From Candidatus Helarchaeota archaeon (GTDB lineage: Archaea > Asgardarchaeota > Lokiarchaeia > Helarchaeales > RDOG01), in NCBI GenBank assembly GCA_029838215.1, contig JALGVI010000032.1, forward strand, positions 1-34,365: a stretch of DNA of 34,365 nucleotides. Direction: 5' to 3'. The notes beneath the pieces are model-generated. The model saw only the letters and a program-made list of their open reading frames with translations, was not told where the DNA came from and made no database searches. Shown in pieces: positions 1,373 to 9,062 of this stretch. Numbering within the stretch: position 1 is the first letter of the stretch; each line of letters begins with the position of its first letter. The translations under genes and the position numbers were made by a program.

Positions 1373-1927
1373 ATGATGGACGTCGATGAATTTGAACTTC
1401 TAAGACTATTAGGAAATAAAACACGTCGAGAAATACTTGAGCTAATTTCAGAATCCCCCCGATTCCTATCGGATATATCCAAGGATTTGGAAATAGGGCA
1501 ACAGGCAATTCTCCGTCACCTTAGAGAACTCATGAGTTTCGGAATACTGGAAGAGATGAATGAGGTATTTGATGAATCGGGACAGAAAAAGGGTCGAAGG
1601 CGCAAATATTATAAAATATCAGAAAAACATAGGCGTCGAATCGTCATAGACATATCTCCAGATTGTTTTGACATTCATGATTTACCTTTTCTATCAAACC
1701 AAGATACCGAAACTAAAAATGAATATTGCAAGAATGCTAACGACATAATTTCGGAATATGAGGAATTTAAGGAAAATATCATGGGAATAGATAAAGTAAA
1801 GCGTTATGAGAAGATACTCGAATTTGAAAATAGATTAATGAAAGAAATAGAATGTTTAAATCATGCTCGAAGATTAAATGAAGAAATTCTTCGGGACCTT
1901 CAGGTTTTAAAAAGTCACGTTCTTTAA
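1373..1927 (+). CDS. ArsR-family wHTH transcriptional regulator, HSR1/Phr-like heat-shock repressor candidate
   Basis: LLGNKTRREILELI...SDISKDLEIGQQAILRHLRELMSFGIL...GRRRKYY is an ArsR wHTH, followed by a C-terminal coiled region. It lies directly upstream of cdc48, as for archaeal heat-shock regulators. Confidence 0.8.
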   Translation: MMDVDEFELLRLLGNKTRREILELISESPRFLSDISKDLEIGQQAILRHLRELMSFGILEEMNEVFDESGQKKGRRRKYYKISEKHRRRIVIDISPDCFDIHDLPFLSNQDTETKNEYCKNANDIISEYEEFKENIMGIDKVKRYEKILEFENRLMKEIECLNHARRLNEEILRDLQVLKSHVL

Positions 1928-1956
1928 ATCTTATTCTTTTAATTAATAGAATCGAA

Positions 1957-4236
1957 GTGAATGAAATGGTTGATGAAATACAATTACGCGTGCAATCAAT
2001 AGATGAAAAAAGTGCCATGAGATCATGGGTACGGGTAGATCCAGAAGTCTTCCCGAAATTGAAAATCTCAACGGGAGATATTATTCAGATACGGGGCAAA
2101 AAGACGACAGGAGCCATTGTAATCCCTGCCAAAAAAGAAGATGTAAACATGAACATCATTCGAATGGATGGCCTGATCAGGCAAAATGCTCAAGCAGGTA
2201 TTGGAGATATCGTAACTGTCGCAAAAATTAAGGTTCCAAAGGCTGAAAAAATTGTTTTGGCACCTGCTGCCGAAAATATCAGAGTAAGAATTTCGGGTGA
2301 TAGCATAAAAGGACATCTCATCAATAGACCCGTTAATAAAGGTGATATCTTAAGCGTATTTCGCCAACAGAGGCAACGTTCACAATCAATGCAGTTTTCA
2401 CCTCAATTTTTCGAAGAGTTTTTAACGGGAATGCGGTCTAAAAACCCATCAATGGGAGAAATTCGATTCAAGGTCATCCAGACAGTTCCCAATCAAATCG
2501 TTCAAGTAACGGGAAATACCAAAATTGAGATAAATTCTGAAGCCGTAACCTTACCGTCGGGTGTTCCGATTGTAACATATGAAGATGTTGGAGGTCTTGA
2601 AGACGCCATTCAAAGAATCCGGGAAATGGTTGAGCTTCCATTAAAACATCCCGAACTATTTTCGGCTTTGGGGATAGATCCTCCAAAAGGAGTTCTTTTA
2701 CACGGTCCTCCAGGAACGGGAAAAACCCTACTGGCAAAAGCCGTTGCAAATGAATCAATCGCAAATTTCGAGGTCATCAATGGTCCTGAAATAATGTCCA
2801 AATTCTATGGACAATCTGAAGAAACTTTGCGTAAAAAGTTCGAAAAAGCCGAACAAAAAGCTCCCAGCATCTTATTTATTGATGAAATAGATTCAATCGC
2901 CCCAAAACGGGAGGAAGTAACGGGTGAAGTCGAGCGAAGAGTCGTTGCCCAACTTTTAGGACTGATGGATGGTCTAAAAGGTAGAGGAAATGTCATAGTA
3001 ATTGGAGCTACGAATCGACCAAATGCATTAGATCCCGCACTTCGAAGACCCGGACGATTTGATCGAGAAATTGAGCTTCCAATGCCCGATAAAAAAGGAC
3101 GTAGAGAAATCTTACAGATTCACACGCGTGGAATGCCACTACACGAAGATGTCAACCTTGAAGAAATCATTAACATCACGCACGGATTTGTTGGAGCAGA
3201 CATTGCTGCACTGGCTCGTGAAGCCGCAATGTGTTGCTTGCGAAAAATTTTACCGGAATTAAACTTGGATGAGAGGTTCATTCCACAAGAAATCCTTGAT
3301 AAACTTCGAGTTTGCAGGGAGGATTTTTTGGAAGCACGCAAGCTTGTTGAACCCAGCACCCTCCGCGAAGTAATCATCGAAATACCCAACGTAAAGTGGG
3401 ATGATATCGGAGGACTTCACGATGTCAAGGAAAAACTTCGTGAAACAATAGAATGGCCATTAAAAACGCCAGATATTTTTAAAGAAGTGGGTATTCGTCC
3501 ACCTAGAGGCATTCTCTTGTTCGGACCTCCCGGTTGCGGAAAAACCTTGTTGGCGAAAGGTGTTGCCACAGAAAGCCAAGCAAACTTCATCAGCATTAGA
3601 GGACCGGAAGTATTTTCCAAATGGGTTGGAGAAAGCGAAAAAGCCATCAGGGAAGTATTCAGAAAAGCGAGAACTGCGGCACCATCAATCATTTATTTTG
3701 ATGAACTCGATGCAGTGGCTCCGAGGCGCGGTGCTTATTCGGGCTCGCAAGTCTATGAATCTGTTTTAAATCAAATTCTTTCAGAATTCGATGGACTTGA
3801 AGACCTTAAGAATGTAGTCGTTGTTGCATCAACAAATCGTCCTGACTTGATAGATCCCGCACTATTACGCCCGGGAAGATTCGATCAGTTAATTCTGGTG
3901 CCTGCTCCTAACCGAGAAAATCGAAAGGAAATTTTTAAAGTCCATACAAAACACATGAAACTCATTGATGATGTTGATATTGATAAGATCGTGGGTGATC
4001 TTGATGGATTTAGTGGTGCAGATATCGAAAATCTCATACGAGAAGCAGGAATGGAAGCAATTCGAGATGCAAAATTAAGTAATAAACCAATAAAAGGCGT
4101 GAACTCGATGCATTTTGAACGAGCTGCAAGAGCAGTACACGCAACCCTTACCCCAGACATCATCAAAAAATATGAAAACATGTATAAGACACTAAAATCC
4201 AAACGCGCTGCCGTAAAAGAATCGCACTATGCCTAA
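1957..4236 (+). CDS. cdc48: Cdc48/VCP (VAT) AAA+ ATPase
   Basis: N domain ([12 protein letters not shown]), two AAA modules with Walker A GPPGTGKT and GPPGCGKT, Walker B FIDEID and YFDELD, and [12 protein letters not shown] / LLRPGRFD. Ends in HYA. True start may be the ATG at 1966. Confidence 0.97.
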
Positions 4237-4297
4237 AAATTTCCTTTTTTTTAGATAAGTAAATTTTAAAAGACAATTTTTCAACTCGTTTTTTATC

Positions 4298-5512
4298 ATG
4301 GTGGAATTTATTCCCTTTCGGGCGTTTCAATACAATCTAAGGAAGATTTCGAAATTAGAAGATGTTATTGCCCCTCCTTATGATGTCATTAAGCCTGCAC
4401 AAGAACGAGAATTGAAGAAACACGTAAATAACATTACCCACGTTGACTTACCGATATCATATAAAAATGCCGCAAAGTTGTTAAACAACTGGATCAAAGA
4501 GAAGATCCTGATTCAGCCCGAAAAGAAAGCATTTTACATTTATGAAATTAAATTCCATAAAAATGATACGCCTTCGAAAATTCAAGGATTAGTTGGACTG
4601 ATAAAACCCGTCGATTTCTCTGAAAAAAAAATCCTACCTCATGAAATGACATTCCCAAAATGCATGGATGATCGAACGAAACTCTTAGAAAATACAAATG
4701 CCAATTTCGGTCCGATTTATTTGATCTATCAAGGCAATTCAAAATTGAGTACAATTCTGGCAGATCATTCAAATTCAAATCCAATTCTCTCGGTTACAGA
4801 TAGAGATGGGTTCATTCACACGATCCGAAAAATAGATGATCCTGGTAAAATTAACGATATTACTAGCGAGTTTAAATCCATTAAATTGATCATTGCAGAC
4901 GGACATCATCGTTATAAAACGGGTCTCCTTTATAGCAAGCAAAAAAATGGTTTAAAATATGTAATGTCCTTTCTCGTTGATATTCAAAATCCTGGGCTTC
5001 TAATCTTTCCAACCCATCGCATGATTAAATCCTTCAAGAATACCCCCGTGGATAAATTTCTCAAAAAAATCGAAGAAAATTTCGACATTCAAGAATTTAA
5101 AGATGATAAAGAGTTAATACATGATATAGAATCCTGTCAACGATTCCATGTCTTTGGTTTTATTCATGGACCGACCAAGAGTTTTTATAAATTTACTCTA
5201 AAGGCAAGCGTTGATCCAACAAAACTGATAAAAAAATCGCATTCAGATGAATGGAAAAAATTGGACGTTTCAATTCTTCATGAACTCATTCTAACGGATG
5301 AATTAAACTCGAATGGAAATATCACTTATGAGAAAAACGTTGAAAATGGAATCAATTCCATCAAGGATAATGAACATGAGGGAATCATCATTCTAAAACC
5401 CACGGAATTAGAAAGCATCCAAAAAATCACGGAATTTGGCGAAATAATGCCTCATAAATCCACGTATTTTCACCCAAAACCTTTAAGCGGACTTTTAATT
5501 TTTAAGAAATGA
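4298..5512 (+). CDS. DUF1015-family protein
   Basis: Family-typical motifs: FIPFRA, IAPPYDVI, ILPHEMT, IIADGHHRY, IFPTHR, C-terminal MPHKSTYFHPKPLSGL. Confidence 0.85.
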   Translation: MVEFIPFRAFQYNLRKISKLEDVIAPPYDVIKPAQERELKKHVNNITHVDLPISYKNAAKLLNNWIKEKILIQPEKKAFYIYEIKFHKNDTPSKIQGLVGLIKPVDFSEKKILPHEMTFPKCMDDRTKLLENTNANFGPIYLIYQGNSKLSTILADHSNSNPILSVTDRDGFIHTIRKIDDPGKINDITSEFKSIKLIIADGHHRYKTGLLYSKQKNGLKYVMSFLVDIQNPGLLIFPTHRMIKSFKNTPVDKFLKKIEENFDIQEFKDDKELIHDIESCQRFHVFGFIHGPTKSFYKFTLKASVDPTKLIKKSHSDEWKKLDVSILHELILTDELNSNGNITYEKNVENGINSIKDNEHEGIIILKPTELESIQKITEFGEIMPHKSTYFHPKPLSGLLIFKK

Positions 5513-5573
5513 TCTAGGAAAAAATAAAAAAGCACTAAAAGTATTTTTTCTATAATTTGTATTAATTGATAAG

Positions 5574-6365
5574 TTGGAAGAAAAAAACGTGTCTTTTGAG
5601 AAGATTTACGGCAAGGACCTCGTAACAATCGATAAAAATCAGCTAAAAAAGCCAATCTCTGTACACGGCATGCCCGGAATGGGAATGGCAGGGAAAAATG
5701 CTGTAGATTTATTTATAAAAGTATTACCGAATGTACGGAAAATACATGAGATATATTCATCGGCTTTCCCCAGTCACGTCGCCATTTTGAATGATGGTTC
5801 CATCAGACCTCCAAAAATAGATATCTATCTTGCGAAAAATCCCGAAGGAAATCATGATTTCATATTGGTTACAGGCGACTTTCAGCCAAGTAGCGCCACG
5901 GGTACGAATGTTCTTTCTTCTTACATCGTAAATTATCTAAACCAGTTAGGAATAACGCAAATCATTTCTTTAGCCGCAACACCTGTAGCGGCACCAAAAG
6001 AAAAACCAAAAGTATTCATGACTGCCACTTCAGACGATTTAATACCCCCGTTTCGTGAATTAGGCGTCAAGCCCTTTATCAAAGGAGTCATTACGGGAAT
6101 GAATGGAACGGTCCCTGCCATGGGAAAGCTTGAACACGACATGGATGGGGTCATCCTTTTATCAGAAACCTTTCCTCAATTCATGGAGGATGCTAAAGCG
6201 AGCGTTTCACTCGTTAGAATACTTGAATCATATTTATTACTTGAAGTGAATACCGAAGAACTTGAAGAAAAGGGAGAAAAAAATCTCAAGATCTACGAAA
6301 AAATGATGAATAAAAAACGAAAACAATCAAAACGTCGCGGACGAAGCGTGGGATACATAAGTTGA
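5574..6365 (+). CDS. PAC2-family proteasome assembly chaperone-like protein
   Basis: GMPGMGMAGKNAV, LVTGDFQP, GVITGMNG, LSET..DAKAS and a C-terminal GYIS match archaeal PAC2/Pba-type proteins. Confidence 0.82.
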   Translation: MEEKNVSFEKIYGKDLVTIDKNQLKKPISVHGMPGMGMAGKNAVDLFIKVLPNVRKIHEIYSSAFPSHVAILNDGSIRPPKIDIYLAKNPEGNHDFILVTGDFQPSSATGTNVLSSYIVNYLNQLGITQIISLAATPVAAPKEKPKVFMTATSDDLIPPFRELGVKPFIKGVITGMNGTVPAMGKLEHDMDGVILLSETFPQFMEDAKASVSLVRILESYLLLEVNTEELEEKGEKNLKIYEKMMNKKRKQSKRRGRSVGYIS

Positions 6366-6380
6366 AGAAGAGGGCTTGAA

Positions 6381-6872
6381 ATGCCAAATAAGATATTTCA
6401 AAACGAAGAATATCATGTTCAAATAGACTATTTACCCGAAAACTTCATCCTACAAGAACTTTCAGGAAACAAAGAAGAAGGCAAGATAATTTTTGAGTCT
6501 CGAGAAATCCTCGATGAATCCTATGGCGCATACATCAAATTTGAATATTCATGGAACACGATAGAATTTGATTTTCGACTTTCAGATGGTGATCTGATCG
6601 ACGAAATCGACAGGCAATATCAACGACTCAGAATAAACTCAATTGAGCGAAATGGAGAATATATTAACACGCACTATAATCAGTACATAACAGGTTCCAG
6701 AATTATCGTTCAAAAAGAGATTCAATACCCCACGGTAGAAATCAATGGTGTTTTCTACTGCGAACATTCTGAGAGACAATTCAATTATCGATTCATGATT
6801 TACCGTAAGATTTATGAAGAGTGGAAAAATACTCTTTTAGAAATCATTCATGCATTTAAATGCCATTTTTAG
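6381..6872 (+). CDS. Hypothetical protein, possibly PsbP/DcrB/Mog1-like fold
   Basis: 163-aa ORF in line with its neighbours. The N-terminal IDYLPENF strand-turn and C-terminal helix-strand (WKNTLLEIIHAFK) resemble the PsbP-like pattern. Fold call is tentative. Confidence 0.6.
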   Translation: MPNKIFQNEEYHVQIDYLPENFILQELSGNKEEGKIIFESREILDESYGAYIKFEYSWNTIEFDFRLSDGDLIDEIDRQYQRLRINSIERNGEYINTHYNQYITGSRIIVQKEIQYPTVEINGVFYCEHSERQFNYRFMIYRKIYEEWKNTLLEIIHAFKCHF

Positions 6873-7000
6873 CAAGCCATCGCGGAAATCGTCATCATCT
6901 CATTGATGTATTTCTAAATCAAAAAATTAAAATAAAAAAACACGCAAATAATTCTAACTTGCTGGAAATCATTTTACAAACTAAGAGATCGTGAAGATTT

Positions 7001-8344
7001 ATGCCAAAAAAGAGCAACCTCGAAACGGAAATGCTTGAAATACCAACTTCAACAGATTTTCCTAATGTAATGTCCCCTAAACGCATTTATTTCAGTAAAA
7101 TCAAGAATGGAACCAAATATCGCATTGGTAAGGGATTTAGCCTTAAAGAAATTAAGGCCGCCGCCATTCCGCTTGATATAGTCATGAAGTATAAATCACG
7201 AGTTCCAATTGATAGACGAAGAAAGACCCTTCATGATGAAAACGTTGCATATCTTGGAAAGTTATTTCGGGAAATATTAAAACAAAGGGAAAGCAGACTG
7301 GAAGAAATTAAAAAAATAGATAAAAAGAAAAAAGAACTAGTCAAAAACCTGACAAAAAGTCTTGGCATATCAAAAAAGGAAGCACTTGCAATTACAGAAG
7401 CGGGAGTTAAATCTGTTGAACAATTAGTAAATGAAGATCCAAAGGTTTTAGCTAAGGATTTAGGAATTAAAACAAGTGACGTTAACAAGTTAATAAAAGA
7501 AGCAAGGCGCGTGACAGTTCTTAAAGAATTGGAAGATGCAATTAAGAACTTGACCCAACTTAAATCAATAAATGCTTCAAAAGCTAAAGAATTGGCAGCT
7601 CTTGGAATCGTAAATATTGAGATTCTTGCAGAAGAAGTCCCTGAAGAGCTTGCAACAGAGATGGGCTATGCTGAAAAGATGACTTCAAACTGGATAAAAG
7701 AAGCCCGAGAAATGCTTGGATCTAAAACAAAGAAAAAAGAAATTGAAAGATTGAAGCCAGTTGCTAAAAAAGGAAAAAAGCATAAAGTCGAAGAGGCAGG
7801 ACTGAAAGACATCCTAAATAAACAGGAAATAAGAGCACTTGCAGATATTGAAGTAAAAACACTCAAGGATCTTGCAGAAGAAAACCCTGACGAAATTTCT
7901 TCGATTTTGGGCATAAATAAAAATATTACTCAAAAGTGGATAAACGATGCCAGACGGTTGCTGGGTCTCGAACTCGTTACGGAAGTAAAGAAACCTAAGA
8001 AGCAAAAATACGAAGAGATAGACCAGCTAATCGAAAAAAGTTTCGAAATATCCCTTGATTTAGAAGAGGAAGAAGAAATAAGTTCTGAAGAAATTAAAGA
8101 AACAATGGAAGAAATAAAAACCGTTGCTAAAAAAGTAGAAGACGAAAAAGATGAACTAAAAAAGACCGTTGCTTTGCTTGTTAAAGTACCCAGTCTGGGA
8201 AAAGCATCTGCTGAAAAACTGTATAAAGCAGGAGTTCGGACCATCGAGGATTTGATTCATGCAAACGCTGAGGAACTGGCAGAAAAAAGCAAGATTTCCA
8301 TCAAAAAGATTCAAGTTTTCATTGAAAATGCTTCAAATTTATGA
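7001..8344 (+). CDS. rpl13e: Ribosomal protein eL13 domain fused to four tandem (HhH)2 modules
   Basis: RIGKGFSLKEIKAAAI...VPIDRRRKTLHDENV is the eL13 signature. It is followed by four ~55-aa repeats such as VPSLGKASAEKLYKAGVRTIEDLIHANAEELAEKSKIS (RadA-N/NusA-AR-like HhH). Confidence 0.85.
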   Translation: MPKKSNLETEMLEIPTSTDFPNVMSPKRIYFSKIKNGTKYRIGKGFSLKEIKAAAIPLDIVMKYKSRVPIDRRRKTLHDENVAYLGKLFREILKQRESRLEEIKKIDKKKKELVKNLTKSLGISKKEALAITEAGVKSVEQLVNEDPKVLAKDLGIKTSDVNKLIKEARRVTVLKELEDAIKNLTQLKSINASKAKELAALGIVNIEILAEEVPEELATEMGYAEKMTSNWIKEAREMLGSKTKKKEIERLKPVAKKGKKHKVEEAGLKDILNKQEIRALADIEVKTLKDLAEENPDEISSILGINKNITQKWINDARRLLGLELVTEVKKPKKQKYEEIDQLIEKSFEISLDLEEEEEISSEEIKETMEEIKTVAKKVEDEKDELKKTVALLVKVPSLGKASAEKLYKAGVRTIEDLIHANAEELAEKSKISIKKIQVFIENASNL

Positions 8345-8381
8345 AAAAAAAGTAATGGAAAATAATTATTCTACTAATTTT

Positions 8382-9062
8382 TTATTTACTTTCTATTAAT
8401 TTTTTATATACTTCTTTCTTTTTGGCATCCATGGTCAAAAGCTCTCTCGGCGCATTTTCATCATCAATTTCATTTAAAATGTTCATCAGCATTTCTTTTA
8501 ATTCGTCCAACGTGGCATCCTCATGATACGCTTCTTTCAATAGACTCATTGCCTTGTTTTCATCGTTTCCTACAGCTATTGCTTTAACTTTAAATTTGGC
8601 TCCACTAGGTTCAATCAAATGAATGGATGGACCAGAAGAATCGATTCCCGCAAAAATAAGGCTTACACCAAAAGGTCTACCGCCAAATTGAGTAACTTGT
8701 TGCATTTTATTGCTAATTTTCCAAGCCAAAACATCGAGATCGGGATCTTCATTATAATACAGCCGCTGTACTTGAGCCTCAATTCGTGCTTGATTTATCA
8801 AAACTCTCGAATCGGCTAACAGACCCGAAAATGCTGTAAAAATAAATTCTTCAATTTGAAAAATTTTCTCATTATTCTCGTATAATGGATTAAAACTATT
8901 ATACTGTGATAGAACTACCACACCTGCATTTGACCGTGCAGCCAAAACAAGAGACCCGCGCTTCACGGCTTCTCGTGCATACTCTATCTGATGAATTCTG
9001 CCGTCAGGACTGAACATGGTAGCAATCCTGTCATACCCTCCTAACCGTCCAACATCAAACAT
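8382..9062 (-). CDS. psmA: 20S proteasome alpha-type subunit, divergent paralog
   Basis: GYDRIATMFSPDGRIHQIEYAREAVKRG, SGLLADSRVL, GGRPFGVSLIFAG. 226 aa with a degenerate C-terminal third. Confidence 0.93.
   Translation of the reverse strand: MFDVGRLGGYDRIATMFSPDGRIHQIEYAREAVKRGSLVLAARSNAGVVVLSQYNSFNPLYENNEKIFQIEEFIFTAFSGLLADSRVLINQARIEAQVQRLYYNEDPDLDVLAWKISNKMQQVTQFGGRPFGVSLIFAGIDSSGPSIHLIEPSGAKFKVKAIAVGNDENKAMSLLKEAYHEDATLDELKEMLMNILNEIDDENAPRELLTMDAKKKEVYKKLIESK

Follow-up and report, generated by a model that had tools for sequence, protein, structure and literature searches.

The stretch of DNA analysed here (hereafter the window) comprises 34,365 nucleotides of contig JALGVI010000032.1, from a Candidatus Helarchaeota archaeon. 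It contains a gene in which a core of ribosomal protein eL13 is followed by four copies of a two-hairpin (HhH)2 module. The features of this gene, in window coordinates, are as follows.

7001–8344, forward strand: eL13-(HhH)2x4 gene, 447 aa, a single uninterrupted 447-codon frame
7058–7276, forward strand: eL13 core, residues 20–92, net charge +12, assigned by HMM, structure and motif
7235–7363, forward strand: predicted continuous helix, residues 79–121, from the eL13 core into module 1, pLDDT about 83–91
7337–7516, forward strand: (HhH)2 module 1, residues 113–172, net charge +4, no GhG
7538–7717, forward strand: (HhH)2 module 2, residues 180–239, net charge −3, no GhG
7718–7789, forward strand: basic flexible linker, residues 240–263, net charge +9
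7790–7963, forward strand: (HhH)2 module 3, residues 264–321, net charge −3, shortened hairpin
7964–8164, forward strand: acidic linker, residues 322–388, net charge −10, poorly conserved (19% mean identity to relatives)
8165–8341, forward strand: (HhH)2 module 4, residues 389–447, net charge +2, hairpin S-L-G-K

The N-terminal part had been identified as eL13 from the letters alone, and profile, motif and fold all uphold this. Residues 34–120 reach the gathering score of Pfam PF01294, Ribosomal_L13e (25.1 vs 24.9 bits; 26.9 bits in a genome-wide search), and the core retains all of the G, G, F, S, E, D, R and N residues of the invariant G-x-G-F-S-x-x-E, D-x-x-R and N positions. The NCBIfam archaeal L13e equivalog, PRK12277, matches residues 30–94 (E = 1.6e-11) with 43.7 bits, short of its 96-bit cut-off; that cut-off is reached by 0 of 400 Asgard genomes and so excludes Asgards generally. 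When the ORF was searched against PDB sequences the top matches were eL13s, and a profile built from Asgard eL13 cores matched P. calidifontis eL13 with E = 8e-18. The predicted core superposes on the same protein (9e6q_AH; Z 5.9, rmsd 1.9 over 54 residues), and structure searches also matched it to archaeal and eukaryotic eL13 folds. eL13 is single-copy, with one match in each of seven Helarchaeales genomes, among them the source genome (94% complete), where a second, short eL13 was looked for and none was found. Core sequence motif, fold and one copy per genome are common to this protein and to archaeal and eukaryotic eL13s. The Helarchaeales form differs from the eukaryotic one in having neither its N-terminal ~50 residues nor its C-terminal ES9-binding helix, and carries four folded (HhH)2 domains instead. 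The ORF belongs to the eL13 family and, judged from sequence and predicted fold, serves a Helarchaeales archaeon as its working eL13; the core of the protein would bind 23S rRNA within the large subunit, into which it is presumably incorporated.

The core clears the Pfam cut-off only narrowly and falls short of the one for the NCBIfam equivalog, as might be expected if the ORF were an assembly chimera, an objection raised in the preliminary description, or a non-ribosomal protein merely holding an eL13-like piece. However, an identical gene is present in two further metagenome assemblies (JGI 3300033148 and 3300033149), in which the upstream 3 kb flanks differ by 6–7 bases. The same architecture, with 3–4 modules, was found in all seven Helarchaeales genomes searched and in eight database homologues, labelled Ca. 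Helarchaeota or Helarchaeales. G+C content is even across the core-module junction, and the gene is the sole eL13 found in its genome. On the evidence of the other assemblies and the Helarchaeales relatives, the fusion is not a chimera, and both of these readings are largely refuted and in our view extremely improbable.

Modules, linkers and predicted structure

HHH_5 matches four stretches of the ORF (E = 7.8e-23), and our own (HhH)2 profile places them at residues 113–172, 180–239, 264–321 and 389–447, with 0 matches in a reversed-ORF control. The four modules share 25–32% pairwise identity (z 4.4–10.5 relative to shuffled sequences). The preliminary description had read four repeats of the RadA N-domain and NusA acidic repeat type after the core, in one frame, separated by one basic and one acidic linker. 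Both profiles recover these repeats at coordinates that agree with the earlier ones within about 10 nt, with a difference of 9 nt at the start of module 4, the basic (+9) linker and the acidic linker are present, the latter with a stretch of net charge −12 containing LEEEEEISSEE, and profile and structure matches back the assignment to the RadA/NusA type. In searches of the PDB with the module profile, NusA AR2 was the best natural match (E = 3e-11), followed by the RadA N-domain (E = 6e-11), and topoisomerase V was also matched.

An AlphaFold2 model of the full protein has a mean pLDDT of 76 and a pTM of 0.42, so the orientation of its domains is uncertain. Each module adopts the five-helix, two-hairpin fold of about 60 aa (Z 8.4–9.7 for modules 2–4, Z 5.2 for module 1). 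Module 3 superposes on the yeast Rad51 N-domain (Z 8.9, rmsd 1.7) and module 4 on NusA AR2 (Z 8.4, rmsd 2.2); the best Foldseek match of the model was NusA. A single-sequence fold of module 2 (pLDDT 60) was left out of the analysis. Modules 1 and 2 are joined by a predicted continuous helix, as in the NusA AR1-AR2 tandem, and modules 3 and 4 come after low-confidence linkers, a layout that predicts an arm that is rigid next to the ribosome and flexible towards its far end. A long, flexible, multivalent arm had been proposed earlier; the multivalent tail stands, and in the model flexible linkers serve modules 3 and 4 only, modules 1 and 2 being carried on continuous helices.

Several known systems resemble this array in part. 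E. coli NusA AR1/AR2, a tandem pair, is the closest natural solved relative by profile; its repeats, part of a transcription factor, are strongly acidic, whereas the eL13 modules are near neutral and the terminal ones usually carry GhG. Consistent with this difference, the ORF scores 19.9 bits against the 48.15-bit cut-off of the NusA acidic repeat model TIGR01954, its modules are not strongly acidic, and S1 and KH domains are absent. The RadA/Rad51 N-terminal domain has the same five-helix (HhH)2 fold, but the eL13 modules are repeated, come with no RecA ATPase domain and have a degenerate hairpin in internal copies. The Methanopyrus topoisomerase V array and the C-terminal repeats of topoisomerase I (PRK14973) are likewise (HhH)2 arrays appended to a core protein; those arrays sit on DNA enzymes, whereas that of eL13 sits on a ribosomal protein and is split by charged linkers.

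Fusions of HhH to eL32 and to bL21 are already known and annotated with NCBI models. Halobacterial eL32 (PRK12766) carries the same module type on a large-subunit protein, and our profile matches residues 12–55 of H. marismortui eL32 (1jj2_X, E = 1e-6), which confirms the eL32 precedent invoked earlier. There the host protein is another one and the module is N-terminal and single; Thorarchaeia eL32 has up to four N-terminal copies. Module members also match the bL21 fusion models (PRK12278, E about 2e-4), again models of a ribosomal protein, and the part matched is presumably a C-terminal HhH-like appendage. The bL21 fusion is bacterial, involves a different ribosomal protein and has a single appendage. 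In the literature searched, which covered few subscription papers, no description of the eL13-HhH fusion, its Asgard spread or its repeat series was found; the combination of eL13 and HhH is visible in public automatic annotation.

We then compared the hairpins. The GhG hairpin is typical of nucleic-acid-binding HhH motifs and contacts the phosphate backbone. The modules of the source protein read GIS, SIN, a shortened loop and SLG, and none has a complete GhG. Module 4 of the other 14 Helarchaeales-type homologues has one (14/15 terminal modules in total), as do only 5/43 internal Helarchaeales modules. Terminal modules elsewhere carry GhG in 15/19 Lokiarchaeales, 4/4 Jordarchaeia, 6/6 Sifarchaeia (both modules) and 12/13 Methanofastidiosia sequences; the counts are 12/12 for Thor eL32 modules, 10/13 for RadA N-domains and 0/16 for Thor eL13 modules. 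Identity by module position is 40–45% among relatives, as compared with 49% for the core and 19% for the acidic linker, and the modules group by position in a tree. Module 3 is missing from both 3-module Helarchaeales relatives, and in some relatives the basic linker has grown into Lys/Glu/Pro repeats. The near-invariant module columns are core Leu and Gly, fold-determining residues only, and column conservation revealed no invariant surface patch on the modules. The net charge of the modules is near neutral, and that of one linker is strongly negative.

Distribution of the module on eL13 and other proteins

A search of 400 Asgard genomes recovered an eL13 core in 285; four families, probably Heimdallarchaeia, are almost wholly without one. 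Among 122 Asgard eL13 genes read, which were picked as top matches and for diversity and not at random, 89 carry 1–4 modules; they come from 17 of 25 families, one of the 17 via a likely contaminant contig. Repeat number was expected to vary across Asgards, and it does: copy number ranges from 0 to 4, with repeated losses even inside Thorarchaeia and Lokiarchaeia. Helarchaeales have 3–4 modules (four in five genomes, three in two). A single module is present in 22/22 genomes of the largest Loki family, in 32/41 Thorarchaeia genomes (33 counting a frameshifted copy) and in Jordarchaeia and Baldrarchaeia; Hermod-, Freya- and Sifarchaeia have two, and the Odin and Njord families none. Because they carry this module, most Asgard eL13s examined are 145–490 aa long; the earlier figure for archaeal eL13, normally under ~100 aa, is right for many TACK archaea and wrong for most of these Asgards. 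About 40 eL13 loci labelled TACK archaea have 0 modules. In the class containing Methanofastidiosia and Theionarchaea, eL13 is present (L155, L195–L219), although a review table gives none for Euryarchaeota, and one module was found in 14/25 eL13 loci. Forms longer than 787 aa were not found in our search, which is weak evidence. The Helarchaeales form is the high end of a widespread trait. A phylogenetic tree of the modules, at a length of 60 columns, does not separate single from multiple fusion origins.

Lineages without the module often have Lys-rich eL13 tails. Among module-less eL13s (L261, L264, L096 and L083), that of L. ossiferum has a short helical end, that of Harpocratesius a tail that weak leads suggest is a winged-helix-like domain, that of genome G038 RNase H1 N-like repeats (E = 5.7e-5) and that of family f25 a domain of no recognised type. 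In Bathyarchaeial and Thermoprotei tails (L145, L146) there is an RGLT motif, which we take to resemble the eL15 C-terminus. Protein P0071 (792 aa) has an eL13 core at its extreme C-terminus (residues 724–790). Likely contaminants are the 2.8 kb contig in another family (L094, G079) that carries an eL13 of Sifarchaeia type (86% identical) and the contigs bearing archaeal eL13 in two bins labelled Bacteroidia (L148, L149). IcmE/DotG-type repeat proteins that matched the eL13 profile were discarded as false positives.

The eL13 tail is an expansion of the (HhH)2 module, which in Asgards is a mobile accessory domain. We found the module fused to Thor Rpo6 (L280:1441–2094), on a Loki FKBP26 isomerase (L303:1492–2625), on Thor TopoVI-A (L287), on a zinc-ribbon/gelsolin protein of the source genome (L011:817–1677) and on membrane proteins; RadA paralogues have extra copies. 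The source genome also encodes a free two-module protein (C146:9042–9464), adjoining an eS26-like gene in the same family. In orthologues from the other two Helarchaeales families (loci L328–L333) the pair heads a multi-pass membrane protein, to which one family adds a DUF4332 tail. On eL32 there are 1–4 N-terminal copies in Thorarchaeia (four in L240:416–1747, three in L241, two in L251) and one C-terminal copy in Jord and Freya; the Thor eL32 expansion is independent of that of eL13 and affects a second ribosomal protein. We considered whether eL32 carries the module whenever eL13 lacks it. This is true in two Thor genomes and false in Odin, two other Thor genomes and others, and both proteins carry it in Jord, Freya and many Thor. 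What a 2026 paper (PMC13257274) termed a helix-loop-helix fragment, a helical piece at the N-terminus of Thor Rpo6, is probably the same module.

This breadth bears on two readings of the tail. The module may have accreted near-neutrally, as a small domain, stable and soluble, that shuffling has placed at the ends of abundant proteins, where it would serve at most as a solubility or spacer tag and have no specific partner. Its occurrence N- or C-terminally on many unrelated proteins and also as a free pair, the losses and 0–4 copies seen even within Thorarchaeia and Lokiarchaeia, the viability of L. ossiferum without it and the restriction of good conservation to fold-determining residues all suit such an origin. 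Nonetheless, the module is retained in 22/22 genomes of the largest Loki family and 32/41 Thor genomes (33 with the frameshifted copy), copy number is fixed per lineage, about 350 extra residues per ribosome are costly, and conservation by position nearly matches that of the core; we consider accretion unlikely. A still more doubtful proposal is that the module is a shared Asgard docking tag on eL13, eL32, Rpo6, FKBP, gelsolin and membrane proteins. If it were, ribosomes might be linked to one another, to membranes and to the actin system, a form of pre-eukaryotic ribosome positioning in which eL13 repeat number would set avidity.

Gene neighbourhood and tethering

Upstream of eL13 lie genes for a heat-shock-type regulator, Cdc48 (three genes upstream), DUF1015, PAC2 and a hypothetical protein, and eL13 converges on proteasome alpha and beta genes. 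The proteostasis cluster, with a Phr-like heat-shock regulator, Cdc48, DUF1015, PAC2 and the convergent proteasome pair, spans 1373–9770 of the window; in relatives the cluster adds Hsp20-like and thioredoxin-like genes. Three other Helarchaeales share the synteny of regulator, Cdc48 and PAC2, and a fourth shares that of PAC2. This synteny, Cdc48 adjacency included, is absent in two 3-module Helarchaeales and in nine genome neighbourhoods read outside the order, and the downstream proteasome pair was not seen in six other Helarchaeales neighbourhoods. A functional link to Cdc48 was rejected: its adjacency is an order-level, inherited synteny that does not track the module.

The tail had been suggested to tether ribosomes to DNA, RNA polymerase or the nearby Cdc48. 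A specific tether to chromosomal DNA, to polymerase or to Cdc48/proteasome is, in our estimate, very unlikely. The modules share their fold with the DNA-binding RadA/Rad51 N-domains and the polymerase-binding NusA AR2, Thor Rpo6 bears the same module, and Cdc48 and proteasome genes lie close by; the gene adjacencies, however, fail to follow the module, as described above. Known contacts between polymerase and ribosome are on the small subunit, whereas eL13 is on the large one. Tethering to DNA is doubtful in view of the incomplete GhG hairpins of the source protein and of the reported spatial separation of DNA and ribosomes in Loki and Heimdall cells (PMC8776820).

Two further ORFs of the window were noted. 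A 163-aa protein without a Pfam family (6381–6872, forward strand) adjoins eL13 here, in genome G001 and in two Lokiarchaeales including L. ossiferum, and atlas searches gave leads to DcrB/DUF3805-like folds. A 762-aa ORF (11120–13408, forward strand) has no Pfam match. A bacterial promoter/terminator scan of the window, a type of scan not applicable to archaea, gave chance-level results.

The ES9 region and possible roles of the tail

The ribosomes of Asgards are the best stand-in for the pre-eukaryotic ribosome, and it is their enlarged rRNA segments that have drawn attention so far. The folded domains on most Asgard eL13s examined are an elaboration on the protein side, at the end where eukaryotic eL13 binds ES9; in human eL13, the C-terminal helix binds ES9L (PMC10665555, PMC7988564). 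In three Helarchaeales the ES9 region measures 120, 122 and 128 nt and has a branched predicted structure; Helarchaeales combine the longest eL13 tail with an enlarged ES9. Its position in the source genome is as follows.

Contig C165, 57783–57904 (locus L340), reverse strand: ES9 region of the 23S rRNA, 120 nt, predicted branched

In other Asgards the region measures 29–41 nt (nine genomes), 92 nt (two Lokis) and 176 nt (a Sifarchaeon). The last (L352, G307) is the largest here by our own anchors, in a gene that spans 4.8 kb with an intron possible; ES9 of up to 103 nt has been reported with that study's own boundaries (PMC7594248). ES39 is not enlarged relative to Odin in two full-length Helarchaeales 23S genes. 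A 92-nt ES9 goes with 0 modules in L. ossiferum and a 38-nt ES9 with 2 modules in Freyarchaeia. With Helarchaeales counted once, ES9 length and module number gave rho 0.47 (p 0.10; Fisher p 0.56), and general co-evolution of the two was rejected as a rule, size and number being uncoupled across lineages. The one Asgard ribosome map found is that of L. ossiferum at 11.7 Å (PMC9834061), in which the module could not have been seen because the species lacks it.

We tentatively favour, at somewhat less than even likelihood, an arm on the surface of the large subunit near ES9 that makes weak, multivalent contacts with RNA. Modules 1 and 2, on their continuous helices, would lie on the solvent-facing side of that subunit, at the site where ES9 meets the C-terminus of eukaryotic eL13. 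Weak, sequence-independent contacts with exposed RNA, be it the enlarged ES9, other surface rRNA or the RNA of neighbouring ribosomes, may come from the basic linker and the terminal module. Such a tail would protect or stabilise the surface of the ribosome and contribute avidity, and core translation would not depend on it. An RNA-contacting arm is consistent with the retention of GhG in most terminal modules, as in RadA N-domains, with position-specific conservation of 40–45% and clustering by position, with the human eL13 helix on ES9L considered together with the enlarged Helarchaeales ES9, and with the Lys-rich or RNase H1 N-like tails of module-less lineages. Several observations argue against it: no module of the source protein has a complete GhG, which is also rare in internal Helarchaeales modules (5/43) and absent from Thor eL13 (0/16); the modules are near neutral and one linker strongly acidic; ES9 size is uncoupled from module number; the module also occurs on membrane proteins, gelsolin and FKBP isomerase; and the orientation of domains is uncertain (pTM 0.42).

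Docking of proteins and near-neutral accretion are close rivals of the RNA-contacting arm. In the former, the tail would be a platform like the NusA acidic repeats that brings partner proteins, other modules or, as a holdase, unfolded nascent chains to the surface of the ribosome, with repeat number tuning avidity. With the module profile, no natural PDB entry scores better than NusA AR2, which is level with the RadA N-domain (E = 3e-11 vs 6e-11); NusA is the best Foldseek match of the model, and NusA acidic repeats mediate heat-induced oligomerisation and have chaperone activity (PMC3731644). Internal and Thor modules are neutral to acidic and without GhG, as suits protein contacts, but most terminal modules retain it. 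The module's occurrence on Rpo6, FKBP26, gelsolin, TopoVI-A and membrane proteins also points to docking, although no partner was identified and the modules show no invariant surface patch. Similarly, the five 4-module genomes cluster the gene with PAC2, four of them with Cdc48 and the heat-shock-type regulator shown, yet a single inherited event probably accounts for this cluster, which other module-bearing lineages lack. Complex prediction with two terminal-module copies and a 63-row alignment scored 0.00 and was counted neither for nor against binding. Protein docking is possible, if on the unlikely side; it and RNA contact can both hold, for different modules.

The module is a small, expressible unit of 60 residues that occurs naturally in 0–4 copies and in GhG-plus and GhG-minus forms, which makes its function directly testable. 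Knowing that function might also account for the HhH appendages of eL32 in halobacteria and of bL21 in bacteria; should the module prove inert, it would be a clear example of domain accretion on core machinery.

The 23S rRNA gene of the source genome also has two strain-specific insertions in conserved parts, at C165:56281–56540 (about 250 nt) and 55636–55740 (about 96 nt), both on the reverse strand; they are absent in G001 and are probably introns.
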